A stretch of DNA of 64,000 nucleotides from an uncultured Actinomycetota bacterium (GTDB lineage: Bacteria > Actinomycetota > Acidimicrobiia > Acidimicrobiales > Palsa-688). The notes under the pieces are model-generated. The model had not been told where the DNA came from and made no database searches. It was given only the letters and a program-made list of their open reading frames with translations. The stretch spans positions 41,707 through 105,706 of the forward strand of contig CAWBSR010000004.1 in NCBI GenBank assembly GCA_963791545.1, written 5' to 3'. The position numbers and the translations under genes are program-made. This document shows, piece by piece, positions 4,122 to 56,457 of this stretch (the first letter of the stretch is position 1; the number at the start of each line of letters is the position of its first letter).

Positions 4122-4170
4122 AGGTGGCTACCAGTTTGTGCCCTGCGGGCGGCCTCCCGACACCGCATCC

Positions 4171-5169: not shown

Positions 5170-5268
5170 CTCCGCGAAACCCTAGTGCCGGGCTGGGCCG
5201 CAAGCGGGCCGGCCAGCCCCGGCTGGGTGGGCTGGACCGGACGCCCCTGATCGGCGACTATCTGGGGC

Positions 5269-13216: not shown

Positions 13217-13319
13217 GAGTGGAAGCGTCAGGTTAGCGCCCCCCAACGCCGGTTGACCGGCCGTTCCCAGCCGTTCCGTCGGGTGGCCGTTCACGGTCCT
13301 CGATAGCATCGCGCCGACC

Positions 13320-13979
13320 ATGGGACTCCAGCAGTTCGAGCGACGGCTCGAGCGCCTCGTCGAGGGCGCCTTCGCCAAGGCGTTCCGTAGCGGCCTGCAA
13401 CCAGTTGAGATCGGCCGCCGGCTCACCCGGGAAATGGACCAGCAACGCACCATCGCGCCCCGCGGCACCCTCACTCCCAACCACTTCACCGTGATCGTCA
13501 GCCCCGCCGACCGGGAACGCTTCGCGCCCATCGAAGCGGAGCTGGTCAGCGAGCTGGTGGCCGTGGCCCGCGACTACGCCCGGGCCGAGAGCTACATTTT
13601 CCTCGGACCCGTCGAAGTCGAGATGTCCGCCGACCCCGACCTGTCGCCCGGCATCTTGCTGGTCTCGGGTGAGATGCGCTCCGCCGAGGGTGGCGGCGCC
13701 CAGCTGGTCATGGCGGACGGCACCCGCCACGAGCTGGGCGCGGCGCCGGTCACGATCGGCCGGCTGCCCGAGTGCGAGGTGGTGCTGACCGACGCCAACG
13801 CCAGCCGCCGCCATGTCGAGATCCGCCCGTCAACCGATGGCGCCGGCGGCTTCGTGCTCATCGACCTGGGTAGCACCAACGGCACCAAGGTCAATGGGGC
13901 CGGCATTCACAGCCACCACCTGCAGCATGGCGACGTCGTCACCATCGGCTCCACCCACATGCGCTTCGAGGCCCAATAG
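13320..13979 (+). CDS. fhaA: FhaA-like protein (DUF3662-type N-domain + C-terminal FHA domain)
   Basis: MGLQQFERRLERLVEGAFAKAF... plus FHA motifs TIGRLPECEVVLTDANASRRHVEI...LIDLGSTNGTKVNG. It also shows synteny with fhaB-pstP-rodA-pbpA-pknB. Confidence 0.85.
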   Translation: MGLQQFERRLERLVEGAFAKAFRSGLQPVEIGRRLTREMDQQRTIAPRGTLTPNHFTVIVSPADRERFAPIEAELVSELVAVARDYARAESYIFLGPVEVEMSADPDLSPGILLVSGEMRSAEGGGAQLVMADGTRHELGAAPVTIGRLPECEVVLTDANASRRHVEIRPSTDGAGGFVLIDLGSTNGTKVNGAGIHSHHLQHGDVVTIGSTHMRFEAQ

Positions 13980-13997
13980 GTCCCGACAGCCACCACC

Positions 13998-14518
<521 letters not shown>

Positions 14519-14522
<4 letters not shown>

Positions 14523-15832
14523 CCAAGCTGTGGGCAGGGGGCGCCACCGATGTGGGCCAGGTCCGGTCCAACAACCAGGACCAGATGCTGGTCACCATCG
14601 AACTGGAGCTGTTCGCGGTCGCCGACGGCATGGGCGGGCACGCGGCGGGCGAGGTGGCGTCGCTCACCGCGGTCGAGGCGTTGAAGGCCGCCTACCGGAA
14701 CCAGGGCGGCACCGAGGGCCTCGTTGCAGCGGCCCACGAAGCCAACCGGTCCATCTTCGCCCGGGCCCAGGGCAACCCCGAGCTGCACGGTATGGGCACC
14801 ACCCTGGTAGCGGTGGCGCTGGTCAACGAGGACGACGAGGACCGCCTGGCGGTCATCAACGTGGGCGACTCTCGTGTCTACCTTTTGCGCGACGGCGAGC
14901 TGGAGCAGCTGACGACCGACCACAGCCTGGTGCAGGAGCTGGTGGACGACGGCCAGCTCACCGAGCAGGAGGCAACGGTCCACCCCCAGCGCCACGTCCT
15001 CACCCGGGCCCTCGGCGTCGACTCCGACGTGAACGTCGACGTCCTCCAGGTCCTGCCCCTCAAGGGCGACCGGCTGATGCTCTGCAGCGACGGCCTGGTG
15101 CGGGAGCTGAACGACAGCCAGGTCGCTAGCATCATGCGCCGCCTCGGCGACCCCGAGGAGGCGGCCCGGGAGCTGGTGGCGGCCGCCAAGACCCGGGGTG
15201 GCAACGACAACATCACGGTGGTCATCGTCGACGTCGTCGACGACGACGACCTGCCGGCGGCGGCGTCGGAATCACTGGCCGCCGACCCGGGCGGCTACGT
15301 CCCGACCATGCAGCTGCGAGTGCCGGTCTTCGAGGCAGCGGTCTTCGAACCAGGAGAGGTGGGAAAAGACGCCGCCCCGCCCCCCGCCGGCGCCGCCGGG
15401 CGAGTCGAGCGCGACGCCCTCCCGGCCGCCGCCAAGGCGCCCAAACGCGGGGCCATCAATGTCCGGGTCATCGCCTTCGTGGTCCTGCTGGTGCTCCTCA
15501 TCGGCGGCGCCGCGGTGGCGGTGGCGCTGTACGCCCGGGGCAGCTACTTCGTGGGCCTCCGCAACGAGGAGCTGACGGTTTACAAGGGACGCCCCGGGGG
15601 CCTGCTGTGGTTCCAGCCGACCATCGCCCGGCACACCCAGGTGCACATCGGCGATGTCCTCCCCTCCCGGTTGAGCGACCTGAAAACCGGGAAAGAAGAG
15701 CCATCCCTCACCGCCGCCCTGGATTACATCAATCGTCTCCAGGCGGAGCGGGGCCAGCAGCTGCAGGTGACCCCCACCACCACGCCGGCAACGCTTCCGA
15801 CCGGCTCCTCCACGGCGTCGTCGGTTCCGTGA
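14519..15832 (+). CDS. pstP: PP2C-family Ser/Thr phosphatase PstP-like, with TM segment and extracellular tail
   Basis: GGATDVGQVRSNNQDQ, FAVADGMGGHAAGEVAS, GGNDNITVVIVDV and TM VIAFVVLLVLLIGGAAVAVALYA. It has a 4-nt overlap with fhaB. Confidence 0.9.
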
Positions 15833-15851
15833 TCTGTTCCCGGGGCCGGCC

Positions 15852-17198
15852 ATGGCCGTAGTCGCCGATCCCAACTACCGGTTGCCCGCCCGGCGGCGCA
15901 CCGAGTTGGGGTTGATCATCCTGGCGGTGCTGTTGACCGGCGGTCTCTACGTCCTGGCCAGCCTGGGCAAGGCGGGGTCGCTGCCCGCCAATATCGGACC
16001 CTTCCTCGCCATCGTCTGCGGGCTGCTGCTGCTGGCCCATATCGGGATGCGGAAGCTGGCCCCCTACGCGGATCCCATCCTCCTGCCCACCGTGGCGCTG
16101 CTCAACGGCGTCGGCTACGTGTTCATCGCCCGCCTCAACCGCCATCTGGCGGGGCTCCAGGCGCTGTGGACCGCGACGGGCGTGGCCGCCTTCCTGATCA
16201 CCTTGTTCGTGGTGCGCCGGGCCCGGGACCTGGAGCGCTACCGCTACATCTTCGCCCTTCTCGGCATCGGCCTGCTGCTCATGCCCCTCCTCCCCGTCGT
16301 CGGGACCAACATCAACGGAGCCCGGCTGTGGATCCGGGTGGGCGGGGTGACGTTCCAGCCCGGGGAGCTGGCCAAGATCGCCCTGGCCGTCTTCTTCGCC
16401 TCCTACATGGTCGAACGCGGGGAGCTACTGACCAAGGGCACGCTGCGCATCGGCCGTTTCCTGGTTCTCGACCCCAAGTACATCGCCCCGGTGCTGGTGG
16501 CGTGGGGGCTGTCGCTGATGATCTTCCTCTTCGAGAACGACCTGGGCTCGTCGTTCCTGTTCTTCGCCCTGTTCATCGGCATGCTCTGGGTGACCACGGG
16601 CCGCAACGCCTACCTGGGCCTGGGGGCGGTGCTATTCGGCATGGGGGCGGCCTTCGCCCTCAAGGTTATCGGCCACGCCAAAGGACGCATCCACTCCTGG
16701 ATCAATCCCTGGCCCCTCTACAACGTGCCGAACGGCGGCTACCAGACCATTCAGGGCTGGTTCGCCATGGCCGCCGGCGGGGTTTTCGGCGACGGCCCGG
16801 GGCGAGGTAGCCCCCAGCGCATCCCGGCGGTGGCCACCGACTTCGTCTTCGCCGCCATCGCCGAGGAGCTGGGCCTGCTCGGGGCGGCCGCCGTCCTCTC
16901 CGCCTACCTCCTGATGGTGGGCACCGGGCTGCGCATCGCGGTGCGCTGCGAACACGACTTCGAGAAGCTGCTGGCCACCGGGCTCTCGATCATCCTGGGC
17001 ATCCAGACCTTCGTGATCATCGGCGGGGTCACCCGGCTGATCCCCCTGACGGGCGTCACCCTGCCGTTCATCAGCTACGGCGGCAGCAGCCTGATCGCCA
17101 ACTACATCCTGCTGGCCCTATTGCTGCGCATCAGCAACGACTCCTCGACGCCGGAGATGGTGGACTCGAACGCGGCCCAGATGACGGTGGCCGTGTGA
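15852..17198 (+). CDS. rodA: SEDS family FtsW/RodA
   Basis: Polytopic membrane protein with GARLWIRVGGVTFQPGELAKI, PAVATDFVFAAIAEELGL and TGVTLPFISYGGSS. Confidence 0.9.
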   Translation: MAVVADPNYRLPARRRTELGLIILAVLLTGGLYVLASLGKAGSLPANIGPFLAIVCGLLLLAHIGMRKLAPYADPILLPTVALLNGVGYVFIARLNRHLAGLQALWTATGVAAFLITLFVVRRARDLERYRYIFALLGIGLLLMPLLPVVGTNINGARLWIRVGGVTFQPGELAKIALAVFFASYMVERGELLTKGTLRIGRFLVLDPKYIAPVLVAWGLSLMIFLFENDLGSSFLFFALFIGMLWVTTGRNAYLGLGAVLFGMGAAFALKVIGHAKGRIHSWINPWPLYNVPNGGYQTIQGWFAMAAGGVFGDGPGRGSPQRIPAVATDFVFAAIAEELGLLGAAAVLSAYLLMVGTGLRIAVRCEHDFEKLLATGLSIILGIQTFVIIGGVTRLIPLTGVTLPFISYGGSSLIANYILLALLLRISNDSSTPEMVDSNAAQMTVAV

Positions 17199-18652
17199 AC
17201 CGGCAAATACGAATCGCCGGGATCGGCATGATCGTCCTTTTCCTGATCCTGTTCTTCCAACTCAACTATGTCCAGGTCATCCGGGCCTCGGACCTCGACC
17301 ACAACCACCTGAACTCCCGGTTGGCCCTGGCCAAGTTCACCACCAAGCGGGGGGACATCGTCTCGTCCGATGGCGTGGTGCTGGCCCATTCGCTGCCCAC
17401 GACGGACGCCTACAAATGGCAGCGGACCTATCCCAGCGGGGACCTGTTCGGGCAGATCACGGGATACTTTTCCTTCACTTACGGTGAGGAGGGAGCCGAG
17501 CGGGCCTTCGATGCCGACCTGACCGGCGCCAACGCCCCCTTCCAGCTGCCCAAGAGCCTGAAAGATCTGACGCTCAAGCAGGACCCGAGCCAGACCGTCA
17601 CCCTGACGCTGTCCAACAAGCTGCAGGCGCTGGCCAAGGCCCAGATGGGTGCCAAGAAGGGGGCGGTGGTCGTCCTCGACCCGACCTCCGGCGCCATCCT
17701 GGCCCTGTGGAGCAACCCTTCCTACGACCCCGGCCCGCTGGCCGCCCACGACCAGAACCCGGTGCGCACCTACTGGCAGGCCGAGAACGCCAACCCCGAC
17801 CAGCCCCTCCTGGCAGCCGCCTTCCGGCGCCGCTTCTTCCCCGGTTCCACGTTCAAGACCGTCACCGCTTCCGCGGTCTACGAGAAGCGGCCCGACCTGG
17901 CCACCAAGGTCTACCCCCAACTCCCGGCCTTGCCGCTGCCCCAGACGGGGGGCCAGGTGCTGCGCAACTTCGGTGGCGAGGTGTGCGGAGGCACCCTGCC
18001 CGACCTGTTCCGGGTCTCCTGCAACAGCGGCTTCGCCGCCATCGGCCTCGACCTGGGCGGCCAGGCGCTGGCCGACCAGGCCAACGGCTACGGGTTCGAC
18101 CAGACACCGCCATTCGACCTGCCCGAGGCGGCCCAGTCGAGCTTCCCGGCCGGGGCCAGCTTCGCCCGTGACCTGCCGGGCCTGGCCAAGTCGGCCATCG
18201 GCCAGCAGAACGTACAGGCGGTGCCCCTCGGGATGGCGCTGGTCGCGGCCGGTATTGCCAACGGCGGGGTGATCATGACGCCTCACGTCCTGGCCTCGGT
18301 GGCCAACTCCCAGGGCCAGGTCGTGCGCAGCTATCAGCCCTCGGCGTGGCGCAGCGCCACCTCGGCCGCCACCGCATCGTCCATGACCCAGCTGATGGTT
18401 TCCGTCGTCCAGGCGGGAACCGGTACCGCGGCCCAGATCCCCGGAGTCCAAGTGGCCGGCAAGACCGGTACCGCCCAGACCGGCCTCAACACCATCCACG
18501 CCTGGTTCGTCTCCTTCGCCCCCGCCAACGCGGCCAAGGTCGTGGTGGCGGTCCTGGTGGAAAACCAACCCGAGGGCGGGGAGGCCACTGGCGGCGTCAT
18601 CGCGGCCCCCATCGCCAAGGCCATGCTGCAAGCTGCCCTGCAGGGTCCCTAG
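17195..18652 (+). CDS. pbpA: Class B penicillin-binding protein PbpA-like
   Basis: PGSTFKTVTASA (SxxK), CNSGF (SxN-like) and GKTGTAQ (KTG). It has a 4-nt overlap with rodA. Confidence 0.9.
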   Translation: MNRQIRIAGIGMIVLFLILFFQLNYVQVIRASDLDHNHLNSRLALAKFTTKRGDIVSSDGVVLAHSLPTTDAYKWQRTYPSGDLFGQITGYFSFTYGEEGAERAFDADLTGANAPFQLPKSLKDLTLKQDPSQTVTLTLSNKLQALAKAQMGAKKGAVVVLDPTSGAILALWSNPSYDPGPLAAHDQNPVRTYWQAENANPDQPLLAAAFRRRFFPGSTFKTVTASAVYEKRPDLATKVYPQLPALPLPQTGGQVLRNFGGEVCGGTLPDLFRVSCNSGFAAIGLDLGGQALADQANGYGFDQTPPFDLPEAAQSSFPAGASFARDLPGLAKSAIGQQNVQAVPLGMALVAAGIANGGVIMTPHVLASVANSQGQVVRSYQPSAWRSATSAATASSMTQLMVSVVQAGTGTAAQIPGVQVAGKTGTAQTGLNTIHAWFVSFAPANAAKVVVAVLVENQPEGGEATGGVIAAPIAKAMLQAALQGP

Positions 18653-18678
18653 GACGCTCGTGTGACAGGCTCTGACCG

Positions 18679-21306
18679 ATGACGCAGCCAACCCCGCCCG
18701 GGTCCTCGGGAACCGAGGGGGCCGCGGCCCGCGTCTTCAACGACCGCTACGAACTGGTCCGCCACGTGGCCCGGGGCGGTATGGCCCAGGTGTACCTGGC
18801 CAAGGATTTGCTGCTCAACCGGCCCGTGGCCCTGAAGGTCTTGTTCCCCGAGTTGTCGGTGGACCGGTCGTTCGTGGAACGCTTCCGCCGGGAGGCCCAG
18901 GCGGCCGCCAACCTCACCCATCCCAACATCGTCTCCATCTACGACTGGGGCGAGGGGGAACACACCTACTTCATCGTGATGGAGTACGTCAACGGGCGCA
19001 CCCTGGCCCAGCTGCTGCGCCAGGGGCCACTTGACGCCGACCAGGCGGCGGCGCTGGGGGCCGACGTCGCCCATGCCTTGAGCTTCGCCCACTCCCACGG
19101 CGTCATCCACCGCGACATCAAGCCCGCCAACGTGCTGATCGACAAGTCGGGCCAGGTCAAGGTGACCGACTTCGGCATCGCCCGGGCAGTAGGCGCCAAG
19201 GAGGGCCTGACCCAGACCGGCACGGTCATGGGGACGGCCACCTATTTCTCGCCCGAGCAGGCCCAGGGACATCCCGTCGACGCCCGCAGCGACGTGTACT
19301 CGCTCGGGGTGGTGCTCTACGAGATGGTCACCGGGCGGCCCCCCTTCAGCGGTGACAACCCGGTGGCCATCGCCTACAAGCACGTCCGCGAGGAAGCCGT
19401 CCCCCCCTCCCAGGTCAATCGGGCGGTGCCCCACTCGCTCGAGGCGATCATTCTCCAGGCCATGGCCAAGGACCCCAACGACCGCTACCTGTCGGCCGAC
19501 GACCTTCGCGCCGACCTCACCCGCTACGTGCGCGGCAGCGGCGTCCTGGCGCAGCCGGTCCGGCCCGCCGCGGCCGCCGTGACCCCGACCCGGGTCCAGG
19601 GCGGCTACGCCGGGACCCAGGTCCTTCCGGCCGGCGGCGTCGTGGTCCGCACCGGCGGAGCCGGCTCCGGGGCGGGACGGCCGGGCGGTCCCAACACCGC
19701 GGAGCTGGTCACCACCCAGCGGCGCAGCGGCGCCTATGTCGTGGTCCTGATCGTGATGCTGGCCATCCTCGGTGGCCTGTTGTTCCTGCTGGGCAAGCAG
19801 CTGGGCGTCTTCGGCAGCGCCACCGCCAGCCAGGTGGCGGTGCCCATGGACCTGGTCACCAAGTCGGTCGCCGACGCCCGCACCGAGTTGGAGGGGGTAG
19901 GCCTGAAGGCCAACCCCTCGTTGCCGGCGGGCACCGTGACCGCCACCACCCCCGCCGGCGGCACCACCGTCAACAAGGGGTCAACCGTCAACTTGACGGT
20001 GAGCCCCCCTACGGTCCAGGTGCCGGTGCCCAACGTGGTGGGCCAGGACCGCCAGACGGCCGAGAACGCCCTGCTGGCCGCCGGGCTGGTGCCGATGGAG
20101 GGACCGGCGGAGAACTCCGACACCGTCCCCGCCGGCAGTGTGATCAAGACCAATCCGGTGGCAGGCACCCAGGTGCCCAAGAACACCACCGTCACCGTCA
20201 CCCTCTCGCTGGGCAGGGCCCAGGTGAAGATCCCCGACGAGGCCGGCAAGGACCCGGCGAGCGCGGGCGCCGACCTCTCCGCCCTCGGGTTCAAGGTCGC
20301 CAGCGCCGCCGAGGCGTCCAACGCCCAACCGGCCGGCAAGGTGACCCGGACCAGCCCCGCCGCCGGGACATCGGTGGCGTCGGGCTCCGCGGTCACCATC
20401 TTCGTCTCCTCGGGCACCCAGCAGGTACCGGTCCCCGATGAACGGAACCAGACCGCCCAGGCGGCCCAGTCGGCGCTTCAGTCGGCCGGCTTCGTCGTCA
20501 ATGTGGTCAACCAAGCCACCACCAATCCCAACCGGGATGGCATCGTGATCAACCAGAACCCGGCCTCGGGAACCCAGGCCAGGGGGGCGACGGTGACCAT
20601 CACGGTCGGTCAGTTCAGCGGTACCGCCACCACGTCGTCGAACCTGAGCCAGCCAGTTACCCATCAGGCGGTGGCCCTCGTCGGTGAGGATCGACTCGGG
20701 ATGGAACTGCACCCCCTCGACGGGAAAGTCCCGGTGGCGCAGGCCCATGATGGTCCCGTCCTCGGTCCACGCGGTGACCTCCAGCTGGTCGGGCAGCGAC
20801 GCCGGGTCCACGACCAGGGAGTGGTACCGGGTGGCCCGGAACGGGTCCGGCAGGCCGGCCAGCACCCCCCGGCCGTCGTGATGGACGAGGGACGTCTTGC
20901 CGTGCATGACCGAGTCCGCCCGGACCACCCGGCCCCCGAATACCTGGCCGATGCACTGATGGCCCAGGCACACGCCGAGCACCGGCGTGCCCGCGGCACC
21001 GAGGACGGAGATCACGCGGTTGCTGGCACCGGCGTCCTCGGGTCGCCCCGGCCCTGGGGAGACGAGCACGCCGTCAGGCGCCAACGCCATCACGCCGTCG
21101 GCATCGATGGCGTCGTGGCGGAAGACCACCGGGTCGGCGCCCAGCTCCCCCAGGTACTGGACCAGGTTGTACACAAAGCTGTCGTAATTGTCGAGAACAA
21201 GTATCCGCGGGGCCACGACCGCGAGGCTAGGCGGCGATCGGCAGGACTAACCTCGGAGTTATGGCGACGAGACGGACCAAGGACGCCCCCAAAGGCGGAC
21301 GGGTGA
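18679..21306 (+). CDS. pknB: Ser/Thr protein kinase PknB-like with four PASTA repeats; the homology-supported part ends near nt 20640 but the frame stays open to 21306
   Basis: Kinase motifs VALKVL, HRDIKPANVLI, DFGIA and SPEQA. The TM is YVVVLIVMLAILGGLLFLLG. PASTA-like units run up to ...GATVTITVGQFSG. The remaining ~220 codons are antisense to trpG. Confidence 0.85.
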   Translation: MTQPTPPGSSGTEGAAARVFNDRYELVRHVARGGMAQVYLAKDLLLNRPVALKVLFPELSVDRSFVERFRREAQAAANLTHPNIVSIYDWGEGEHTYFIVMEYVNGRTLAQLLRQGPLDADQAAALGADVAHALSFAHSHGVIHRDIKPANVLIDKSGQVKVTDFGIARAVGAKEGLTQTGTVMGTATYFSPEQAQGHPVDARSDVYSLGVVLYEMVTGRPPFSGDNPVAIAYKHVREEAVPPSQVNRAVPHSLEAIILQAMAKDPNDRYLSADDLRADLTRYVRGSGVLAQPVRPAAAAVTPTRVQGGYAGTQVLPAGGVVVRTGGAGSGAGRPGGPNTAELVTTQRRSGAYVVVLIVMLAILGGLLFLLGKQLGVFGSATASQVAVPMDLVTKSVADARTELEGVGLKANPSLPAGTVTATTPAGGTTVNKGSTVNLTVSPPTVQVPVPNVVGQDRQTAENALLAAGLVPMEGPAENSDTVPAGSVIKTNPVAGTQVPKNTTVTVTLSLGRAQVKIPDEAGKDPASAGADLSALGFKVASAAEASNAQPAGKVTRTSPAAGTSVASGSAVTIFVSSGTQQVPVPDERNQTAQAAQSALQSAGFVVNVVNQATTNPNRDGIVINQNPASGTQARGATVTITVGQFSGTATTSSNLSQPVTHQAVALVGEDRLGMELHPLDGKVPVAQAHDGPVLGPRGDLQLVGQRRRVHDQGVVPGGPERVRQAGQHPPAVVMDEGRLAVHDRVRPDHPAPEYLADALMAQAHAEHRRARGTEDGDHAVAGTGVLGSPRPWGDEHAVRRQRHHAVGIDGVVAEDHRVGAQLPQVLDQVVHKAVVIVENKYPRGHDREARRRSAGLTSELWRRDGPRTPPKADG
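19981..21216 (-). CDS. trpG: Glutamine amidotransferase TrpG/PabA (anthranilate synthase component II); homology ends near nt 20630 but the frame stays open to 19981
   Basis: MAPRILVLDNYDSFVYNLVQYLGELG, GVCLGHQCIG (catalytic Cys) and VQFHPESILT. The tail is antisense to the pknB PASTA region. Confidence 0.8.
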   Translation of the reverse strand: MAPRILVLDNYDSFVYNLVQYLGELGADPVVFRHDAIDADGVMALAPDGVLVSPGPGRPEDAGASNRVISVLGAAGTPVLGVCLGHQCIGQVFGGRVVRADSVMHGKTSLVHHDGRGVLAGLPDPFRATRYHSLVVDPASLPDQLEVTAWTEDGTIMGLRHRDFPVEGVQFHPESILTDEGHRLMGNWLAQVRRRGGGTAELTDRDGHRRPPGLGSRGRVLVDHDAIPVGIGGGLVDHIDDEAGRLKRRLGRLGGLVPFIGDRYLLGARGDEDGDRGARRHRCPGGGAGPGHLAGRLGVGRLGGAGDLEPEGGEVGARARRVLAGLVGDLHLGPAQREGDGDGGVLGHLGACHRIGLDHTAGGDGVGVLRRSLHRHQPGGQQGVLGRLAVLAHHVGHRHLDRRGAHRQVDG

Positions 21307-36102: not shown

Positions 36103-36429
36103 CAACCGCGGCTGGGGTCCCCGATGACGAGCCAGGGCGACTTGGCGACCCGACGGCCACCTCCAGCCTCGTGGTAGCCGTTTGGACCCGATAGCTGGAC
36201 ACGATCGTGGATTGCTGGCAGGCTGAGGAAAGCTGAAGAAGGCAGAGGGCCAGGGCGAGGAGGGGGGCGCCGTGCCGAGGGGCATCGAGGTCGCGTCAGC
36301 GACGGCACGCGGGATCACGTTGATGGGCGAATCTGAGAAAAATAGAAAAACAGGCCACCGAAAGCCCGATTCTTTGGCCTAAGCGATACGGATGCTTGCC
36401 ATCCGCATTCGGAACAGAGTTATCACCTA

Positions 36430-39400
36430 TTGACGACGGACTACGCGCGTCCTTCTTTCAACCTTGCCAGGCCGCGGAGGGAACGGTTGGACTCTCTGAT
36501 CAAATCGAGCATCAAGCACCGATGGGTGCTGGTTGTAGCCGCCCTGTTGGTGTTCCTGGGCGGCTTCACCCAGCTGCGGCACGCCCGGGTCGATGCCCTT
36601 CCCGAGTTCAACGCCCCGAGGGTCGAGGTGCAAACCGAGGCGCTCGGGCTATCCGCCCAGGAGGTCGAGCAGCTTCTCACGGTCCCCCTGGAGCGCAACC
36701 ACCTCAACGGAATCCCGTTCCTGAAGTCGATCAAGTCACGGTCGGTGCCCGGGCTGTCCTCGATTGAAATGATCTTCGAGCCGGGCACCGACCTCTTCAC
36801 GGCCCGGCAGCTGGTGCAGGAGCACCTCAGCACGACCAACGAGCTGCCCAATGTCTCCAAGCCACCGCAGATGCTCCAGTCCGTCTCCTCGGCCGGCCGG
36901 GTGATGATCATCGGGATCTCGACGGACAAACTCACTCCCATCGAGCTGTCGGTGCTCACCGAGTTCACCATCCGGCCGCGGCTGCTCGGCGTCCCCGGCG
37001 TGGCCGGCGTTTCCGTTTTCGGTGCTCGCGACCTCCAGCTGCAGATCCAGCTCGACCCGGCCCGGTTGCTCTCCCAGGGCGTTTCGGTGGATCAGGTCAT
37101 CACGACGGCCGGGAACGCATTGTTCGTCTCGCCGCTCACGTTCCTGGAGGCTTCTACCCCGGGCAGCGGCGGCTTCTTCGATTCGCCGACCCAGCGCCTG
37201 GGCGTCCAGCACATCCTCCCGATCAGGACGCCGGCAGATCTTGCCCAGGTGGCCATCGCCGACGCCAAGACGCCGCTGCGGCTAGGTGATGTTGCCACCG
37301 TGGTCGAAGACCATCAGCCCCTCATCGGAGATGGGTCCTTGGCGAGCGGGAAGGCACTGCTGTTGGTCGTCGAGAAGCTGCCCGGGGCCAATACCGGGGA
37401 GGTCACCCACCGGTTGGACGCCGCCTTGGGCCAGTTGAAGCCCAGCCTCAAAGGCATCCAGGTCGACGGGTCCCTGTACCGGCCCCAGACGTTCATAGAA
37501 CAGGCGATCGGCAACCTTCGAGGTGCCGCCACCGCCGGCGCCATCCTGGGACTGCTCCTCCTCGCCCTGCTCGTGTTGTCGTGGCGGGCGGCCGTGGTGG
37601 CCGCAGTCACCATCCCGCTGTCGGTGGTAGCTGCCGCCACCGTGTTGGCCCTGCGGGGCGCAACCTTCGACTCGGTCGTGGTCGCGGGGCTTATGGCGGC
37701 CATGGCGCTGGTGGTATTCGACGTCGTCGTCACCACCACAGCCATGCACCGGCGGGGCTCGCCACGCGGCAGCGATCCGCCCTCGTTTGCCGCCGTCGTC
37801 GGCCAGGTGGGACGACCGCTCGCCAGCGCGACCGTCATCGTCGGCATCGGGCTGACCCCGTTTTTGCTCCTGAACGGCGTGTCGGTACAACCGTTCGTGA
37901 CGCCAGCGGTGATGTCCTTTGGCCTCGCCGTCCTGGCCTCGCTCGTCGTGGCCCTCACCATCGCCCCCGCCGTCGGCGCCGTGGTATTCCGGCCCGCCAA
38001 ACTCGTAGCCGGACCACGCCAGGGCGCGCAAGGCCAGGCCCGCGAACCCCACCCCGGCCAACCCCAGCCCGGCCCACTTCGGACCGCCCGGCGGGGGGCC
38101 GCCCAGGGCCGGCTCACCCGTCGCCGGCCACCACTGCTGGCCGCGGGCGGTGTCTACCGCTCCTTCCTGGCCAGGGGGCTGAGGCGACCGCTGTGGGCCG
38201 CGGCGGTACCGGCGCTGCTCCTGGCCTCGCTGGGTACCGCCTCGATCACCCAGCTGCGGGCGTCTCTCGTGCCGTCGTTCCAGGAGACCGACCTGCTGGT
38301 CCACTGGGACGGCCCGCCCGGTACCTCTCTCGCCGAAATGGGCCGGGTCATCGACCGGGCCGCCGTGGAGGTGCGCCACCTTGCCGGTATCCGGGCCGTC
38401 GGTACCCACACCGGCCGGGCCATCACCGGCGACCAGGTGGTGGGAGCCAGCTCCGGGGAGATGTGGATCAGCGTGAAACCCTCGGTGGACCACGAGGCCA
38501 CCGTCGACCGGGTCAAGGAGGTCGTCAACGGCTACCCGGGCTTCCGCACCGCCGTTTCGACCTTCTTCAATGATCGGATCCGTGAGCTCGAAGGTCAGAG
38601 CGGAGCCGACCTCGTCGTGCGCGTCGAGGGCGTCGACTTCGACGTCATGAACGCCAAGGGCGCCGAGATCGTGCGCCTCCTGGCGGGCGTGAAGGGCGTC
38701 ACCAACACCCACCTCGAGGCCCAGCCACAACAACCCACGATCCAGGTGACCGTCGATCTGGCCGCGGCCGAGAAGGCGGGCATCAAACCCGGAGAGATCC
38801 GGCGGGGGGCCACAACCCTGGTGTCCGGTCTCACCGTGGGGAGCCTCTACCAGGACCAAAAGGTCTTCCAGGTCGTCGTGGTGGGATCGCCCGCCCTACG
38901 TCACGATCTCACCACCATCTCCGACATCAGTATCGACACGCCCGGCGGCGGGCAGGTCCGGCTGGGCGACGTGGCCAAGATCACGGTCGGCTCGAGCGTC
39001 AGTGTCATCAAGCACAACGACGTGGCCCGGAGCCTCGACGTCGCCGCCAACGTCAAGGGCCGCAGCCTCGCCTCGGCGGTGCGGGAGATCAACGCCAGGT
39101 TGAGGGGCGTCAGCTTTCCGGCCGAGTATGACGCCCGGGTGCTCGCCGACCACAGCGAACGTACGGCAGCGCACCGGCGCCTCCTGCTGGCCGGGATGCT
39201 CGCCCTCGTCATCATCTTCCTCGTCTTCCAGGCCACGTTTTCCAGCTGGCGTCTGGCGGCGCTGGCCGTCCTGGCACTCCCGCTGGCGGTCGCCGGCGGC
39301 GCCGTATCCAGCTGGGGAGACGGCCCCACCTTCCAGCTGGGATCGCTCCTCGGTGTCCTCGCGGTGGGCGGGCTGGCAGTCCGCAGCATCACCGTCCTCC

Positions 39401-39741
39401 TGGCCGGGTTCCGGCAGTTGGAACGCGACGAGCCCCGCTTGAGCCGCCTCGCGGTGGCCCAGCAAGCCTCGGTGGAGGCGGGGCTGCCAAGCATCCTGGC
39501 GGCCCTCGTGATCGGGGCCGCCTTCCTGCCCTTCATCGCCATCGGGAGCCTTCCCGGTACCGAGATCATCCGGCCCCTGGCCGTGACCCTGATCGGCGGC
39601 GCGCTGACCACGACTCTCGTGACGCTCGTCGTCCTTCCCGCCGGCTACCTCGTGGGCCGCAGCCGGCGCCCGATGCCCGCCGGCGCCGCCCCGTTCGAAT
39701 CCGCCGCCGGGGCCCACCGTGAGGACGACCTCCATGCCTAG
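36430..39741 (+). CDS. RND efflux permease, CusA/CzcA-like, divergent (TM4 acidic pair and EN motif absent)
   Basis: 1103 aa, TTG start. The N-terminus IKHRWVLVVAALLVFLGGFTQLRHARVDALPEFNAPRVEVQTEALGLSAQEVEQLLTVPLE is typical. The TM4 region reads LMAAMALVVFDVVVTTTAM instead of ...VDDAIV..EN. Confidence 0.8.
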   Translation: MTTDYARPSFNLARPRRERLDSLIKSSIKHRWVLVVAALLVFLGGFTQLRHARVDALPEFNAPRVEVQTEALGLSAQEVEQLLTVPLERNHLNGIPFLKSIKSRSVPGLSSIEMIFEPGTDLFTARQLVQEHLSTTNELPNVSKPPQMLQSVSSAGRVMIIGISTDKLTPIELSVLTEFTIRPRLLGVPGVAGVSVFGARDLQLQIQLDPARLLSQGVSVDQVITTAGNALFVSPLTFLEASTPGSGGFFDSPTQRLGVQHILPIRTPADLAQVAIADAKTPLRLGDVATVVEDHQPLIGDGSLASGKALLLVVEKLPGANTGEVTHRLDAALGQLKPSLKGIQVDGSLYRPQTFIEQAIGNLRGAATAGAILGLLLLALLVLSWRAAVVAAVTIPLSVVAAATVLALRGATFDSVVVAGLMAAMALVVFDVVVTTTAMHRRGSPRGSDPPSFAAVVGQVGRPLASATVIVGIGLTPFLLLNGVSVQPFVTPAVMSFGLAVLASLVVALTIAPAVGAVVFRPAKLVAGPRQGAQGQAREPHPGQPQPGPLRTARRGAAQGRLTRRRPPLLAAGGVYRSFLARGLRRPLWAAAVPALLLASLGTASITQLRASLVPSFQETDLLVHWDGPPGTSLAEMGRVIDRAAVEVRHLAGIRAVGTHTGRAITGDQVVGASSGEMWISVKPSVDHEATVDRVKEVVNGYPGFRTAVSTFFNDRIRELEGQSGADLVVRVEGVDFDVMNAKGAEIVRLLAGVKGVTNTHLEAQPQQPTIQVTVDLAAAEKAGIKPGEIRRGATTLVSGLTVGSLYQDQKVFQVVVVGSPALRHDLTTISDISIDTPGGGQVRLGDVAKITVGSSVSVIKHNDVARSLDVAANVKGRSLASAVREINARLRGVSFPAEYDARVLADHSERTAAHRRLLLAGMLALVIIFLVFQATFSSWRLAALAVLALPLAVAGGAVSSWGDGPTFQLGSLLGVLAVGGLAVRSITVLLAGFRQLERDEPRLSRLAVAQQASVEAGLPSILAALVIGAAFLPFIAIGSLPGTEIIRPLAVTLIGGALTTTLVTLVVLPAGYLVGRSRRPMPAGAAPFESAAGAHREDDLHA

Positions 39742-51954: not shown

Positions 51955-54300
51955 TCAGCCGAGGCGCTCGGTCAAGACCTTGTTGACGACCTGGGGATTG
52001 GCCTTGCCCTTTGACGCCCGAATCGCCTGGCCGACGAAGAACCCCAGCAGCGCGGTCTTGCCATCCCGATACATACCGACCTTGTCGGGGTTGGCCGCCA
52101 GCACCTGATCGACGATCGCCGCGATTGCCTCTTCGTCGCTCACCTGCGCCAGGCCCCGGGCCGCGATGATCTCCTCGGGCTCGCCGCCGCACCGGAGCAA
52201 TTCCGAGAAAACCTCCTTGGCTGCGGCCCCACTGACCGTCCCCCCCTCAGCCGCCAGGATGAGGCGACCGAAGGCGCCGCCTGTCATCGGCACCCCGGCC
52301 AGATCCCGGTCATCGAGCTCATGCGGCAGCTCATTGATGATCCAGCGGGCCACCGCCTTCGCCGGCGCGCCGGCTGCTGCCGCCCCGACAAAGAGTTCTC
52401 CTGTGGCGCGGTCACCGGTCAACAACTCGGCGTCGTCCGTCGAGATCCCGTATTCGCCCGGCCATCGGGCCAGGCGCTCGGCCAGCACCGGATCCCGCAC
52501 CCGAGCCTCGGCCCGATACTCGAGACGGCTCTTCCGGGGCGGCCGGGTGGTGGCCTTGGCCGCCCGAGTTCGGGTCTCGTCCGCGGGCACCGGCGTCGGC
52601 GCCTCCTTGGGGCCGCCCTGCCACGAGGCGCCCAGGGAGACGATCCGGTTGAGTACCGGTGCGAGCGGGCCTGAGGATTCGCCGTCGAAAATGAAATAGC
52701 CGACCCGCTCCAGCTGCCACCGGCTGCCGGGCTCGGCGCCAGCCAGGCTGGCCTCGAGCATGGCGCCCTTGACGACCCGTAGGGAGTCGGCGTTGAGGGC
52801 GTCCTTGATGTCCCCGTCGGTGTCCTCGGGGCGGGCGGCGCTGAACAACCGATCGTAGAGCCGCACTTCGGCGGGCATCGCCTGCGCCGCCGACACCCAG
52901 TGAATGACGCCCCACACCTTGACGTCGGCCGGCGCCTGGCCGACCGTGCCGGGGATGTGATGGGCCCGCACCTCGACGACCTCACCGCCCACCACGCTCA
53001 CCTCGTCACAGGTGATGCAGTAGCCGTGGCGCAGCCGCACTGTCCGCCCCGGGGCCAGCCGCTGGTAGCCGGCCGGCGGTTCGAGGGCGAAGTCCTCGCG
53101 GTCGATCAGGATCTCGCGCCCGAACGGCACCAGCCGCTCGCCCCCCTTGGCCACGTCGGGGGGAAAATAGGGCCCGCTGAGTTGCTCCACCTCATCCCCG
53201 GGCCATGACGTGATCGTCACCGGGAGTGGGTCCAGCACCCCCATGACCCGCGGCGCCACCCAGTTGAGATCGTCGCGAACGCAGAACTCCAGCTTCGCCA
53301 GATCCACCGTCGAGTTGACCTTGGCCACGCCGATGAGGTCCGCGAAGGCGCGAATCGCTTCCGGGCGGTAGCCGCGGCGGCGCATGCCGGCGATCGTCGG
53401 CATTCTCGGATCGTCCCAGCCCGACACCAGGCCCTGGTCGACCAGCAACCGCAGCTTGCGCTTGCTCATCACCGTGTAATCGAGGTTGAGGCGGGCGAAT
53501 TCGATCTGCCTCGGCGGGCGGAACCCGTGGCGCTCGGCAACCCCCGTGTGGGCGACCACCCAGTCATACAGGTCACGGTTGCTCTCGAACTCCAGGGTGC
53601 AGATCGAATGGGTGATCCCCTCGATGGCGTCGGAGATCGGGTGGGCCCAGTCGTACATCGGATAGATGGGCCAGGCGTCGCCGGTTCGATGGTGGTGGGC
53701 GTGGCGGATCCGATAGAGCAACGGATCGCGCATCTTCATGTTGGGGGCGCCGAGATCGATTCGGGCCCGAAGGACACAGGCGCCGTCGGGCAGGTCGCCG
53801 GCCCGCATCTGCCGGAACCGGGCCAGGTTCTCCTCCACGCCACGATCTCGGGACGGCGACGGCTGACCCGGGGTGGAAATGGTGCCCCGGTATTCCTTGA
53901 TCTGCTCGTCGCTCGACTCGTCGACATACGCCTCGCCCGCCCGGATCAGGTGTTCCGCGAGTTCGTACATCTCCTCGAAGTAGTCCGAGGCGTACTTCGC
54001 CCTATCCCCGAAGGAGAATCCCAGCCAGGCAATATCCCGCTCTATCGCGTCGACATATTCGACGTCTTCCTGGGTCGGGTTGGTGTCGTCGAATCGAAGG
54101 TTCGTCACCGACCCGTACTGGTCGGCGATACCGAAGTTCAAGCAGATCGACTTGGCATGTCCGATATGCAGATAGCCGTTCGGCTCGGGCGGGAAACGGG
54201 TGACCACCCGACCGCGGTGGGTGCCGGCTCGCAGGTCGTCGTCGATGATGTCACGGATGAAGTCGGAGCGCACGGGCGCCGCACGGTCGTCGCTGGTCAC
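51955..54300 (-). CDS. glnS: Glutaminyl-tRNA synthetase fused to a C-terminal GatB/YqeY-like domain
   Basis: RFPPEPNGYLHIGHAKS (HIGH), NLRFDDTNP and TVMSKRKL (KMSKS). The C-terminal ~150 aa read ...IINELPHEL...GTVSGAAAKEVFSELL...IIAARGLAQVSDEEAIAAIVDQVLAANPDKV...LLGFFVGQAIRASKGKANPQVVNKVL. Confidence 0.9.
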   Translation of the reverse strand: MTSDDRAAPVRSDFIRDIIDDDLRAGTHRGRVVTRFPPEPNGYLHIGHAKSICLNFGIADQYGSVTNLRFDDTNPTQEDVEYVDAIERDIAWLGFSFGDRAKYASDYFEEMYELAEHLIRAGEAYVDESSDEQIKEYRGTISTPGQPSPSRDRGVEENLARFRQMRAGDLPDGACVLRARIDLGAPNMKMRDPLLYRIRHAHHHRTGDAWPIYPMYDWAHPISDAIEGITHSICTLEFESNRDLYDWVVAHTGVAERHGFRPPRQIEFARLNLDYTVMSKRKLRLLVDQGLVSGWDDPRMPTIAGMRRRGYRPEAIRAFADLIGVAKVNSTVDLAKLEFCVRDDLNWVAPRVMGVLDPLPVTITSWPGDEVEQLSGPYFPPDVAKGGERLVPFGREILIDREDFALEPPAGYQRLAPGRTVRLRHGYCITCDEVSVVGGEVVEVRAHHIPGTVGQAPADVKVWGVIHWVSAAQAMPAEVRLYDRLFSAARPEDTDGDIKDALNADSLRVVKGAMLEASLAGAEPGSRWQLERVGYFIFDGESSGPLAPVLNRIVSLGASWQGGPKEAPTPVPADETRTRAAKATTRPPRKSRLEYRAEARVRDPVLAERLARWPGEYGISTDDAELLTGDRATGELFVGAAAAGAPAKAVARWIINELPHELDDRDLAGVPMTGGAFGRLILAAEGGTVSGAAAKEVFSELLRCGGEPEEIIAARGLAQVSDEEAIAAIVDQVLAANPDKVGMYRDGKTALLGFFVGQAIRASKGKANPQVVNKVLTERLG

Positions 54301-54478
54301 GGACCCGCCACTGTACCCAGGGCCGCCACCGTGGAGGCTGTGGCGACCGCGCGCTCATTGCGGCACCGCTTCCGGCACCGCCGGCTTATCGTGGCGGCCC
54401 GGCCGGCCCGGTAGGCGGCCGCCGGGGACACGGGGTGGCGAGGCGTGGTGGCGAGGCGGGGTCGCCGGCCGGCTGCGC

Positions 54479-54766
54479 TCAAGCGCGGTCGAGCTCGGAG
54501 CCGAGGATGACGCCCGCATCGCTGGCATGGGCCCGAAACGGGTGGACCACGCCACTGGCGGTCGTCAGCGTGCCGATGATGTCATTGCCGTCGATGTCGT
54601 CCGACCGGACGACGACGCCCTCACCAACTCGTTCCCGGAGGTGGGCGACCAGGTTGGCGAAGACGTCACCTCACAGGCTTCATCAGAAATGAAACCAGAC
54701 ACCGTCGATTTCCAAGTTGTAATCGCCCCACGTCGAACCGCACAGCTCACACCCGTCACCGCTCAT
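54479..54766 (-). other. 95-codon reading frame for a TRASH/zinc-ribbon-like small protein containing three in-frame TGA codons (codons 28, 29, 32); either a 27-aa ORF plus orphan coding remnant, a pseudogene, or a recoded (Sec?) gene
   Basis: ATG 54766 has GGAGGA 6 nt upstream. The frame reads MSGDGCELCGSTWGDYNLEIDGVWFHF TGA TGA S L TGA GDVFANLVAHLRERVGEG...GSELDRA, with the terminal TGA at 54479-54481, all in one frame. Confidence 0.6.
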
Positions 54767-55463
54767 GGGTCCTCCACATTCCGTCCATCATGCGCCGCAG
54801 GTGGTCGATCGACTCGCCCAGCACGTCGAGCACCTCCGTCTCCCGTCCCGGGCCGGTATAACGGGCGATGATGGCAACGGAGGCATTTCCATGGGCGGCG
54901 TCGGCCTCGTCGCTCACCCGAAAGAACTCCAGGGCTTCGGCGTCGAGCCCGGTGGCGGCCCACGGGTCCACGGCCAGCCCGGTGCCCTGCCGGAGGCCGT
55001 GGCGGCGGGGCAGGTTGCGGTCACCCATGATTTCGAGGCCGTTCACCGCGGTGAACCCGAGCAGCCAGTCGGGCTGGCGGGCCCAGCGGTCCCAATACCG
55101 GAAGGCGGCGACGGATTCCGCGCCCGGCCGGTGAAGCTCGATCGTCTCCCGGTCGAGCCCCGCGCCCGCTCCGAGACGGATGAGCAGTTCGTAGTGGTTG
55201 GTCCCCGCCGCCGGGTCCCGCACCACCTCCGACATCAGGTTCTCCACCTCAAACGCCAGAACGTCGAACTCCGGGCAGTTCGACATCACCGCCCCGACCC
55301 AGCGCGGGAACCACCGGGAGAACTTGGTCCACTCGAGCACAAACGCCCTCGCTATCGCGAGCGTCGGTGCCGAGGCCATTGACTGGAGAAAAAGGGGCGG
55401 GTCGCGAAACCAGCGCTCGATAACCAACTCCTCGACCTGGACGGCGAAGTCCCCGCCGATCAC
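54756..55463 (-). CDS. Heme-oxygenase-like / PqqC-TenA-like helical protein (putative diiron-type oxidase family)
   Basis: The helix motifs are FEVENLMSEVV, TNHYELLIRLG, AVNGLEIMGD and FFRVSDEADAAHGN. GTG 55463 overlaps the stop of the upstream 71-aa ORF (GTGA). The longer ORF 54756..55571 would overlap that ORF by 112 nt. Confidence 0.65.
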   Translation of the reverse strand: MIGGDFAVQVEELVIERWFRDPPLFLQSMASAPTLAIARAFVLEWTKFSRWFPRWVGAVMSNCPEFDVLAFEVENLMSEVVRDPAAGTNHYELLIRLGAGAGLDRETIELHRPGAESVAAFRYWDRWARQPDWLLGFTAVNGLEIMGDRNLPRRHGLRQGTGLAVDPWAATGLDAEALEFFRVSDEADAAHGNASVAIIARYTGPGRETEVLDVLGESIDHLRRMMDGMWRTHER

Positions 55464-55675
55464 CGGTTCACGCGCTCCCCAACCGTCGGCCGCCCCTCGG
55501 CACGGCGCCTCAACAACGCCGCCAGCTCGACCGCGTCGACCTGGTACTTCGTGACGCTGCGGTTGAGCCACATGACGTGGGCCCCGTCGCTGGCGGCCGC
55601 CTCGGCTACCAGATGCTCCGCCAGTGCTTCCAGCCCGCCGGCGGTCAGGCCGCAGACCTCACAAGGAATGTCCAT
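55460..55675 (-). CDS. 71-aa protein with N-terminal C-E-V-C-G motif, hypothetical
   Basis: MDIPCEVCGLTAGGLEALAEHLVAEAAASDGAHVMWLNRSV.... It is tightly packed between the reductase (3-nt gap) and the oxidase-like gene. Confidence 0.55.
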   Translation of the reverse strand: MDIPCEVCGLTAGGLEALAEHLVAEAAASDGAHVMWLNRSVTKYQVDAVELAALLRRRAEGRPTVGERVNR

Positions 55676-55678
55676 CTC

Positions 55679-56260
55679 TCATCCCTCCAGGAGTCGCAAT
55701 GCCAGGCGGCGACCGCGCCGCTGCTTCATGGCTAAGGCAATCCACAGCCGGAAGAGACAGTCGATAAGGGCCTCGTCGTCGGCCCCGACATAGATGGGAC
55801 GGAGGCCGACGCCCTCGATCACCGCCTCCACCGTCGATCGGTCGGCCTCGGGGGCGGAGAAAAACATGTCGGCCCGCTCGTCGCCGAAAACCGGCTCCGC
55901 CAGGTTCTCGCCGCCCACGGTGTTGAACGCCCGGGCGTAGCGGACTTCTGCCGGCAGCGCCGCCCGGCTGTTGGCGACCGGGGCGGCCATCTGGTTGGTG
56001 GCATCTATCACCAGCTTGCCGCGGAGCGCGTCACCGTGGCTGGCCGACAACTCGACCACCGCGGCTCCCGGCAACGCCAGGATGATCACCACCGCGCCGG
56101 CCAGGGCGTCGGGGATCGAGGTGACGGTGGCCGTTGACGGGCCGGCTACGTCGTCGTCGTCGGGATGGCGAGAACCGAACGTGACCCGATGGCCGGCGCC
56201 GGCCAGGGCCCGCCCGAGGATCCCGCCGATGAACCCGGTTCCGATGACCGCGATGTCCAT
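55679..56260 (-). CDS. NADP oxidoreductase, coenzyme F420-dependent-type (NpdG/F420_oxidored-like Rossmann protein)
   Basis: MDIAVIGTGFIGGILGRALAGAGHRVTFGSRHP, VIDATN and AFNTVG. ATG 56260 is preceded by GGTGAGGAG. Confidence 0.75.
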   Translation of the reverse strand: MDIAVIGTGFIGGILGRALAGAGHRVTFGSRHPDDDDVAGPSTATVTSIPDALAGAVVIILALPGAAVVELSASHGDALRGKLVIDATNQMAAPVANSRAALPAEVRYARAFNTVGGENLAEPVFGDERADMFFSAPEADRSTVEAVIEGVGLRPIYVGADDEALIDCLFRLWIALAMKQRRGRRLALRLLEG

Positions 56261-56457
56261 CCTCGACTCCTCACCGAGCGCCATTGAATCCCTTTTCCCC
56301 CATCCTTACAGCCGCGGCGAATGTGCGGTGGCCGTGTCGATTTGGGCGCAGCCGTTGGTTTGGGAGGTGGGAGCCGCTCGGAGCCGGTCGTCAGGCAAGG
56401 AGAGACCAATGAGCACCTCCGCCCGCTCAGGGGCTTACTCTCGGTAGCGTTACCCAG

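Follow-up and report, generated by a model that had tools for sequence, protein, structure and literature searches.

A 64-kb window of the genome of an uncultured actinobacterium (64,000 nucleotides of GenBank contig CAWBSR010000004.1) contains, on its minus strand, a mini-gene whose single reading frame is crossed by three TGA codons within five codons. We propose that it is an intact gene for an uncatalogued selenoprotein family with a (C/U)UxxU motif in uncultured Acidimicrobiia, the UGAs being read as selenocysteine (Sec, U) via SelB. We put the probability of this reading at about 0.72. That the gene is translated through the UGAs is the safer part of the claim, and we consider it likely. 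On sequence evidence, recoding is by far the best-supported interpretation; such evidence cannot by itself tell Sec from Cys insertion.

The UGA codons and the Ta0938 family

The frame consists of an ATG, MSGDGCELCGSTWGDYNLEIDGVWFHF (27 codons), TGA-TGA-AGC-CTG-TGA, 63 sense codons, and a terminal TGA. At the putative recoding site, the conceptual peptide reads ...GVWFHF-U-U-S-L-U-GDVFANLVAHLR; the part that follows the third TGA begins with GDVFANLV and ends with DRA. The 63 codons past UGA32 have the composition of coding sequence, with G at a frequency of 0.54 in first positions and G or C at 0.83 in third positions, and the sole in-frame ATG, GTG, or TTG among them is a GTG at codon 73. 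A preliminary description of this DNA had reported the three TGAs in one frame, the coding-like continuation of 63 codons, and the lack of a start codon in the first ~40 of these, all of which proved correct. It had also placed a Shine-Dalgarno (SD) sequence 6 nt from the ATG; the GGAGGA is present, but it lies closer to the start than that (Table 1). UGA is not reassigned genome-wide, as TGA serves as an ordinary stop more often than any other codon in the window: of 29 genes with a stop codon that was read, 19 end in TGA, and so does the mini-gene itself. TGA is also the final stop in 12 of 16 full-length members of the family.

With X at the TGA positions, the conceptual protein matched the Pfam family Ta0938 (PF11494) over residues 4 to 65 with a score of 38.9 bits, the gathering threshold being 27 bits, and placing Cys at the three TGAs raised the score to 56.1 bits. 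The match covers positions 2 to 62 of the 92 in the profile; that of one homolog, L013, covers positions 2 to 86. In the nuclear magnetic resonance structure of Ta0938 (PDB 2FQH), FFCCDIC aligns exactly onto F-H-F-TGA-TGA-S-L-TGA. Eight full-length relatives with cysteines (the Cys form; 94 to 117 aa, mostly from Thermoplasmata, many of them named "TA0938 family protein") could be aligned from the N to the C terminus, and all eight have CCxxC in the TGA columns. The five-Cys pattern CxxC ... CCxxC is complete in the mini-gene only if UGA stands for Sec or Cys: the CCxxC columns read UGA-UGA-x-x-UGA here and TGC-UGA-x-x-UGA in five relatives. Were three stops scattered at random over 95 codons, all of them would land on invariant Cys columns, of which the family has five, with a probability of C(5,3)/C(95,3) = 7e-5. 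The preliminary description had argued that three nonsense codons clustered at ligand positions do not look like random decay, and both this figure and the recurrence of the TGAs in every TGA-form homolog bear it out.

Like Ta0938, the mini-protein is an end-to-end domain of ~95 aa with G-C-x-L/I-C-G-S/A-T-W-G-D and F-F/H-F-C-C-x-x-C, followed in the mini-protein by a predicted helix and beta-sheet. It differs in that two or three of the five invariant cysteines are written as UGA, in that a VVRSDD peptide dictated by an RNA hairpin takes the place of a variable stretch, and in its actinobacterial (Acidimicrobiia-like) host, Ta0938 itself being from Thermoplasma acidophilum (Thermoplasmata). 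Also, it has never been annotated as one open reading frame (ORF). In an AlphaFold2 model, residues 33 to 95, the 63 aa past UGA32, form one helix and four strands with a predicted local distance difference test score of 93.5, and the helix begins two residues past UGA32. A Foldseek search of the PDB with this C-terminal model yielded no match of significance, and 2FQH was not among its results.

The mini-gene had initially been likened to TRASH- or YHS-type metal-binding proteins. That comparison was close with regard to spacing, as C9-x18-U28-x3-U32 is near the TRASH pattern C-x2-C-x19-22-C-x3-C, but this is resemblance and not membership, and the family that is matched significantly is Ta0938. 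The TRASH_HVO_1752_C model gave 17.9 bits with the window protein and 25.4 bits with the L013 homolog, both below its cut-off of 27, and YHS gave 13.5 bits (cut-off, 30.3). None of the NCBIfam models matched the conceptual protein.

The stops could have come from a small AT-richer insertion of 60 nt, as the preliminary description had suggested, or from an assembly or sequencing error. The local dip in GC content on which the insertion idea was based is real (0.48 at positions 54670 to 54729), and it mostly reflects the three TGAs and a few window-specific synonymous choices of A or T. However, removal of the segment lowered the PF11494 score from 38.9 to 17 bits; therefore, the segment belongs to the domain. 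It is present in all Cys-form and UGA-form relatives, aligns to the Cys forms without gaps, and carries TGAs that agree across independent assemblies. These observations refute an insertion as well as either kind of error, to which we assign practically no weight. A neighboring 71-aa protein had been taken for a paralog that lacks ~20 aa of this region. We rejected this relationship since the 71-aa protein belongs to a different Pfam family, zf-C2H2_9, and shares with the mini-protein only a similar 19-residue CxxCG stretch.

To follow the TGAs beyond the window, we read the DNA of 16 relatives drawn from independent JGI, ENA, NCBI, and Logan assemblies, which together with the window make a set of 17 distinct TGA-form genes (window plus L001 to L005, L007 to L014, L017, L020, and L021). 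The preliminary description had proposed that codons 28, 29, and 32 be compared among homologs. All 16 relatives share this one-frame layout and have TGA at codons 29 and 32; of the three TGA positions, only codon 28 alternates with TGC (Table 1). Recoding, one of the options raised at the outset, is thereby strongly supported, as the TGAs fall on the CCxxC cysteines of Ta0938 and are conserved. The codons around the TGAs differ synonymously among the relatives (AGC or AGT, CTG or CTC, GGT GAC or GGC GAT). The site reads TGC TGA GAT CTC TGA in L017, from an organism of ~45% GC, and TGA TGA AGC CTC TGA in L021, from an NCBI metagenome-assembled genome (MAG) labelled Acidimicrobiales; NCBI annotates this copy of the gene as a 54-aa hypothetical protein.

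A Ta0938 gene that has been recently or deliberately inactivated might also present three nonsense codons in an otherwise intact ORF. Yet these nonsense codons are shared by 17 distinct genes, with proteins ~47 to 80% identical to that of the window and the 45% GC lineage included, and this divergence excludes copies of one recently spread dead element. The independent assemblies, which share the TGAs and differ in their synonymous neighbors, likewise refute the recent inactivation or assembly error that had been considered. The ratio of nonsynonymous to synonymous differences per site (pN/pS) is 0.27 5' of the UGAs and 0.475 between and after them, thus below 1 on both sides, and the operon context is conserved. 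A pseudogene is effectively refuted, and we regard it as extremely improbable. These codon comparisons show that selection acts on the gene as a single frame that runs through the UGAs. They also show that the UGAs stand in place of invariant cysteines and that some family members have UGC where others have UGA at codon 28. Among orthologs, alternation of Cys and UGA is the classical hallmark of selenocysteine.

Protein searches returned as close relatives only C-terminal fragments of 52 to 62 residues. These are artifacts of gene callers, which split the gene into ORFs of 30 aa and 53 to 57 aa. When 1.84 billion representatives were scanned in full by HMMER with a profile of the C-terminal domain, only fragments of 29 to 79 aa and unrelated repeat proteins came up, and no uninterrupted relative of the domain. 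That the C-terminal relatives all appear as such fragments is consistent with interruption by UGA. The distant Cys-form proteins were reached solely with the full-length profile. Among the GTDB species genomes scanned, there was one spurious antisense match, to a Bradyrhizobium short-chain dehydrogenase/reductase gene, and no isolate or representative genome with the gene.

A conserved hairpin downstream of the UGA codons

The bacterial selenocysteine insertion sequence (bSECIS) of the Escherichia coli fdhF type is a hairpin in the coding region 3' of the UGA. In minimum free energy (MFE) folds, every UGA-form gene forms, from UGA28 on, a first hairpin (hairpin A) followed by a second (hairpin B). 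Hairpin B has a 7-bp stem, a GGUC loop, and a folding energy of -10.8 kcal/mol, and it is the sole bSECIS-type hairpin in 16 of 16 genes. The shape criteria applied were a loop of 3 to 9 nt, a stem of 4 to 16 bp, a G in the first two loop positions, and an MFE of at most -7.5 kcal/mol; hairpin B agrees with them in loop, stem, G position, and energy. The 17-nt SECIS of E. coli, ggttgcaggtctgcacc (PMC3834832), folds with a GGUC loop identical to that of hairpin B, and G23 and U24 of the E. coli loop are the contacts of SelB (PMC8659212).

The alignment was too conserved and too constrained by coding for covariation statistics, and synonymous-site tests were used instead. Hairpin B is invariant in all 13 distinct sequences of the alignment (A2). 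In the low-GC lineage, L017, it reads GUUGUCC-GGUC-GGAUGAC, where both changes lead to G-U pairs, and the codons CGG and TCG are kept despite being locally rare. The four codons of hairpin B with 4- or 6-fold degeneracy (V, V, R, and S) show zero synonymous variation; as a control, 30 degenerate columns with an invariant amino acid were taken from the di-iron enzyme gene next to it in these loci, and 0 of them were codon invariant. Synonymous differences per site (pS) amount to 0.05 in hairpin B and to 0.37 to 0.58 on both sides of it. In a Cys-form ortholog, a different, variable peptide takes the place of the one encoded by hairpin B and there is no GGUC hairpin; the folding energy over 110 nt is -15.8 kcal/mol, compared to -33 kcal/mol for a UGA form of similar GC content. 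Together, these synonymous-site and folding comparisons show that the nucleotide sequence of the VVRSDD-encoding GGUC hairpin is conserved only in the UGA form, with one exception, L016.

The spacer between UGA32 and hairpin B is exactly 57 nt long in 16 of 16 full-length UGA-form genes. In each of them it folds as one closed hairpin with 0 to 5 nt unpaired at the 5' end and 0 to 3 nt at the 3' end, at energies of -21 to -38 kcal/mol and with z-scores below -1.9 in 14 of the 16. Its pairing registers vary between clades. In neighboring genes, which served as a control, 21% of 57-nt windows form one closed hairpin, and the 5th percentile of the energies is -28.5 kcal/mol. A closing helix, UGAUG/CAUCA, was seen in MFE folds and is not supported, as it breaks without compensation in the TGC variants. 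Rfam at gathering thresholds found nothing in the whole window.

In form, hairpin B resembles the bSECIS of E. coli fdhF and of the Zhang and Gladyshev model as summarized in PMC13188914: it is a coding-region hairpin 3' of a UGA with a 7-bp stem and a 4-nt GGUC loop, with G and then G or U first in the loop. It differs in the distance of the loop from the UGAs and in the lack of a bulged U. In addition, it is preceded by a closed hairpin of 54 nt, possibly a spacer, and three UGAs, including an adjacent pair, would depend on it.

How hairpin B might act can be outlined as follows. UGA would write the second half of the five-Cys site, as UUxxU here and CUxxU in other lineages, and the SelB pathway would read these UGAs as selenocysteine, with hairpin B as the candidate SelB-binding SECIS apex. 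Because hairpin B is 64 to 76 nt away in linear distance, we propose that the intervening 57-nt segment folds closed and brings the SECIS near. Folded hairpin A would place the base of hairpin B 3, 12, and 15 nt from UGA32, UGA29, and UGA28, and the loop-to-UGA distance would come to ~10 to 22 nt only with hairpin A folded and skipped. The spacing of the E. coli SECIS is 11 nt, comparable to the 3 to 15 nt in the proposed folded state. One SECIS could then serve all three UGAs; as the ribosome advances it would melt the foot of hairpin A, and hairpin B would remain tethered. Translation of the mini-gene would be coupled to that of the genes for a di-iron enzyme and a C2H2 zinc-finger protein that precede it. 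We advance this model, in which one GGUC hairpin ~70 nt downstream is docked by a spacer hairpin and directs three Sec in five codons, as a tentative one that has somewhat less than an even chance of being right.

Probable selenocysteine insertion and its alternatives

Several observations weigh against Sec insertion at this site or against hairpin B as its signal. The loop of hairpin B lies 64, 73, and 76 nt from UGA32, UGA29, and UGA28, respectively, which is outside the UGA-to-apical-loop spacing of 16 to 37 nt in the published bSECIS model (PMC13188914). Within that canonical distance, no hairpin that fits the model is conserved among the 16 genes; the candidates are a weak hairpin (-4.1 kcal/mol) present in 10 of 16 and the apex of hairpin A, which has no conserved G. 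Hairpin B, being invariant, offers no covariation, and covariation over the whole structure is weak. It has no bulged U such as U17 of E. coli, and a permissive Rfam search of the gene gave no SECIS-like match. The truncated homolog L016 keeps hairpin B exactly (GTCGTCCGGTCGGACGAC) though it has neither UGA nor CxxC. Neither the window nor any fetched locus contains selA, selB, selD, or tRNA-Sec (for tRNA-Sec, 21 loci), and we found in the literature no experimentally documented bacterial precedent for three successive SelB insertions, two of them adjacent. Indirectly in favor of Sec, an order of Acidimicrobiia has the complete Sec machinery (bioRxiv 10.64898/2026.04.03.716425), as do ~40% of mycobacteria (PMC13449736).

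L016, a contig of 500 nt, encodes the C-terminal domain only, with its own SD sequence (AAAGGAGG) and ATG, and is not located beside a di-iron enzyme gene. Its form may stem from a recent truncation or from a chimera, or it may point to another role for hairpin B.

Alternatively, the TGAs might be real stops. The locus would then encode a CxxC peptide of 27 to 29 residues and a separate C-terminal protein, produced by re-initiation or from an internal start, and the role of hairpins A and B would lie in termination, re-initiation, or the stability of the mRNA, not in recoding. Such an arrangement would agree with the split made by every gene caller, with the free-standing C-terminal domain of L016, which still has hairpin B, and with the absence of Sec machinery from the loci searched. 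However, the starts that the callers choose for the C-terminal ORF vary by locus, and neither a start codon nor an SD sequence is conserved past UGA32; in the window, the first start-type codon comes as late as codon 73. The residues right after UGA32 (G/A-D/E/Q-A-F-A) are conserved, vary synonymously in their codons, and are part of the confidently modelled helix. Moreover, the supposed stops occupy exactly three invariant Cys columns, one of which alternates with TGC, and splitting a five-Cys site between two peptides would be structurally senseless for the fold. For these reasons, we consider two separate products unlikely.

It is harder to distinguish selenocysteine from cysteine. The UGAs could be recoded to Cys, or to another residue, so that an ordinary CCxxC Ta0938 protein is made whose synthesis is gated by the recoding machinery. 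Cys might be delivered by a tRNA-Cys-like tRNA that SelB accepts or be carried on tRNA-Sec when selenium is scarce. SelB-dependent insertion of Cys by a tRNA-Sec-like tRNA-Cys has been described in Clostridia. Comparing sequences reveals only that a Cys-like residue is called for, without separating sulfur from selenium, and codon 28 is freely Cys in 5 of the 17 genes. Against Cys insertion, two or three costly UGAs have been kept over a long divergence that includes a low-GC lineage, although a single mutation would turn any of them into TGC. Furthermore, a Cys/UGA pair together with a SECIS-like hairpin usually means Sec in all known families (PMC13188914). We therefore judge that Cys insertion is improbable and that Sec is the residue most probably encoded.

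If UGA is read as Sec, the family would be new to the selenoproteome. A 2026 review of prokaryotic selenoproteins catalogs 119 families (PMC13188914), and neither PF11494 nor a UUxxU or CUxxU motif is among them. In most of these families the protein has one Sec, and in a few it has two or three; the sole entry listed with three Sec is a fusion of arsenite methyltransferase and AhpD that has separate UxxG and CxxU motifs (PMC13188914). Nearest in kind are the metal-binding UxxU protein NF041115, the FmdB-family zinc ribbon with UxxU, the "CU" proteins MbdU and SaoC, and the YHS-domain selenoprotein with GxU, NF041384 (PMC13188914, Table 1). These, too, are small, Cys-rich metal-site proteins in which Sec replaces a ligand Cys in CU or UxxU motifs. 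They differ in fold and family from the mini-protein, which has (C/U)UxxU with up to three Sec in five residues and is partnered with a di-iron oxygenase-like enzyme, not with a transporter or a mercury or arsenic system. Eukaryotic selenoprotein P is similar in that several UGAs per mRNA are read processively with a nonadjacent RNA element. There, however, SBP2 and eEFSec act with a SECIS in the 3' untranslated region, whereas here the element is within the coding region and probably brought close by folding.

A classical search pipeline removes candidates with additional in-frame stops (PMC1976440), which would explain why the family has been overlooked. The gene is misannotated everywhere as two tiny hypothetical ORFs. 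If confirmed, it would add a family missing from both the 119-family catalog and the NCBI naming models, and it would challenge two rules, namely, that a SECIS lies 16 to 37 nt from its UGA and that extra in-frame stops disqualify a candidate; more multi-Sec proteins may then have been filtered out. Adjacent Sec residues would be a first for a bacterial protein, and the SECIS would be of a class excluded by design in current predictors, which demand a spacing of 16 to 37 nt and discard ORFs containing further in-frame stops. A natural element driving three closely spaced Sec insertions would also interest selenoprotein engineers.

The gene cassette and its surroundings

Three overlapping genes form a conserved cassette in which the mini-gene comes last, after a zf-C2H2_9 gene and a gene for a haem-oxygenase-like di-iron enzyme. 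The ATG of the mini-gene sits within the last codons of the di-iron enzyme gene, with an overlap of 11 nt. The di-iron enzyme probably starts at GTG 55463, whose GTGA overlaps the stop of the zinc-finger gene, giving a protein of ~235 aa; its homologs in other loci have 239 to 248 aa. The mechanically called 271-aa ORF of this enzyme (54756 to 55571, minus strand) overlaps the zinc-finger gene by 112 nt. The F420/NADP-type oxidoreductase-like gene upstream of the cassette is also found in L015, and other loci have different neighbors.

Table 1. Positions of the mini-gene, its elements, and the genes upstream of it in the window
Feature	Position	Strand	Remarks
Whole Ta0938-family gene, putatively recoded	54479..54766	-	95 sense positions plus terminal TGA; C6-x2-C9 ... 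U28-U29-S-L-U32
SD-like GGAGGA	54770..54775	-	3 nt 5' of the ATG
CxxC half-site (Cys6, Cys9)	54740..54751	-	Ordinary TGT/TGC codons; columns invariant in the family
UGA codon 28	54683..54685	-	TGA in 12/17 distinct TGA-form genes (window counted), TGC (Cys) in 5/17
UGA codon 29	54680..54682	-	TGA in 17/17 TGA-form genes; Cys in every Cys-form relative
UGA codon 32	54671..54673	-	TGA in 17/17 TGA-form genes; Cys in every Cys-form relative
Hairpin A ("spacer")	54614..54667	-	54 nt; begins 3 nt past UGA32, ends right before hairpin B; MFE folds
Hairpin B	54596..54613	-	GUCGUCC-GGUC-GGACGAC; loop 54606-54603; encodes V-V-R-S-D-D
True terminator TGA	54479..54481	-	115 nt (center to center) 3' of hairpin B
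Haem-oxygenase-like di-iron enzyme (Haem_oxygenas_2 / CADD-like)	54756..55463	-	Pfam and NCBIfam; upstream, translationally coupled
zf-C2H2_9/DUF5810 protein, 71 aa	55460..55675	-	Pfam, 47.7 bits; first gene of the cassette
F420/NADP-type oxidoreductase-like gene	55679..56284	-	Pfam; directly upstream, outside the conserved core

Genomic context on the Cys side was read for one ortholog, P0040 (FFCCEIC), which has the same partner enzyme. Its gene lies with a 4-nt overlap behind a gene in which zf-C2H2_9 and the di-iron enzyme are fused into a single protein of 303 aa. This fused locus is L022, positions 4093 to 5291, on a 514-kb contig of a lineage with ~46% GC. Since the same cassette surrounds the UGA forms and P0040, the two forms are orthologous parts of one module, and the gene fusion argues that all three cassette proteins act together. 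From this linkage we speculate that the mini-protein is a dedicated metal or redox partner of the di-iron enzyme, delivering electrons or metal to it. If the UGAs encode Sec, a Ta0938-fold protein with a selenolate-rich metal or redox site would be the partner of a haem-oxygenase-like di-iron enzyme. The strict linkage provides a testable lead on the in vivo supply of electrons or metal to such enzymes.

The 3' flank of the mini-gene (54400 to 54478, minus strand) is very GC-rich (0.80 to 0.85) and contains a near-tandem repeat, GCCTCGCCACC(A/C)C twice (cgcctcgccaccacgcctcgccacccc). The glutaminyl-tRNA synthetase gene (51955 to 54300, minus strand) encodes a C-terminal YqeY/GatB_Yqey domain (PF02637), as in the "glutamine--tRNA ligase/YqeY domain fusion." Its closest relatives are 71 to 78% identical, and the named ones among them (71 to 75%) are MAGs of Acidimicrobiales, Acidimicrobiia, and Actinomycetota.

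The rest of the window is ordinary actinobacterial chromosome. An N6/N4 DNA methylase gene (PF01555; 49487 to 50752, plus strand) has an adenosine deaminase gene downstream and an unassigned ORF upstream, with no obvious restriction partner among its annotated neighbors. An intact gene for an AcrB-type resistance-nodulation-division transporter (36346 to 39741) adjoins a second, paralogous one (PF00873; 40126 to 43468, plus strand) that is split over two frames: 40126 to 41484 matches profile positions 3 to 334, and 41201 to 43468 matches positions 338 to 1020, with an overlap of ~280 nt. To account for the split copy, one may consider a pseudogene with a frameshift, a programmed shift, or an error in assembly. 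Finally, the conserved actinobacterial cluster fhaA-fhaB-pstP(PP2C)-rodA-pbpA-pknB at 13257 to 21306 (plus strand) identifies the window as part of an Actinomycetota chromosome, which it probably occupies near the origin.

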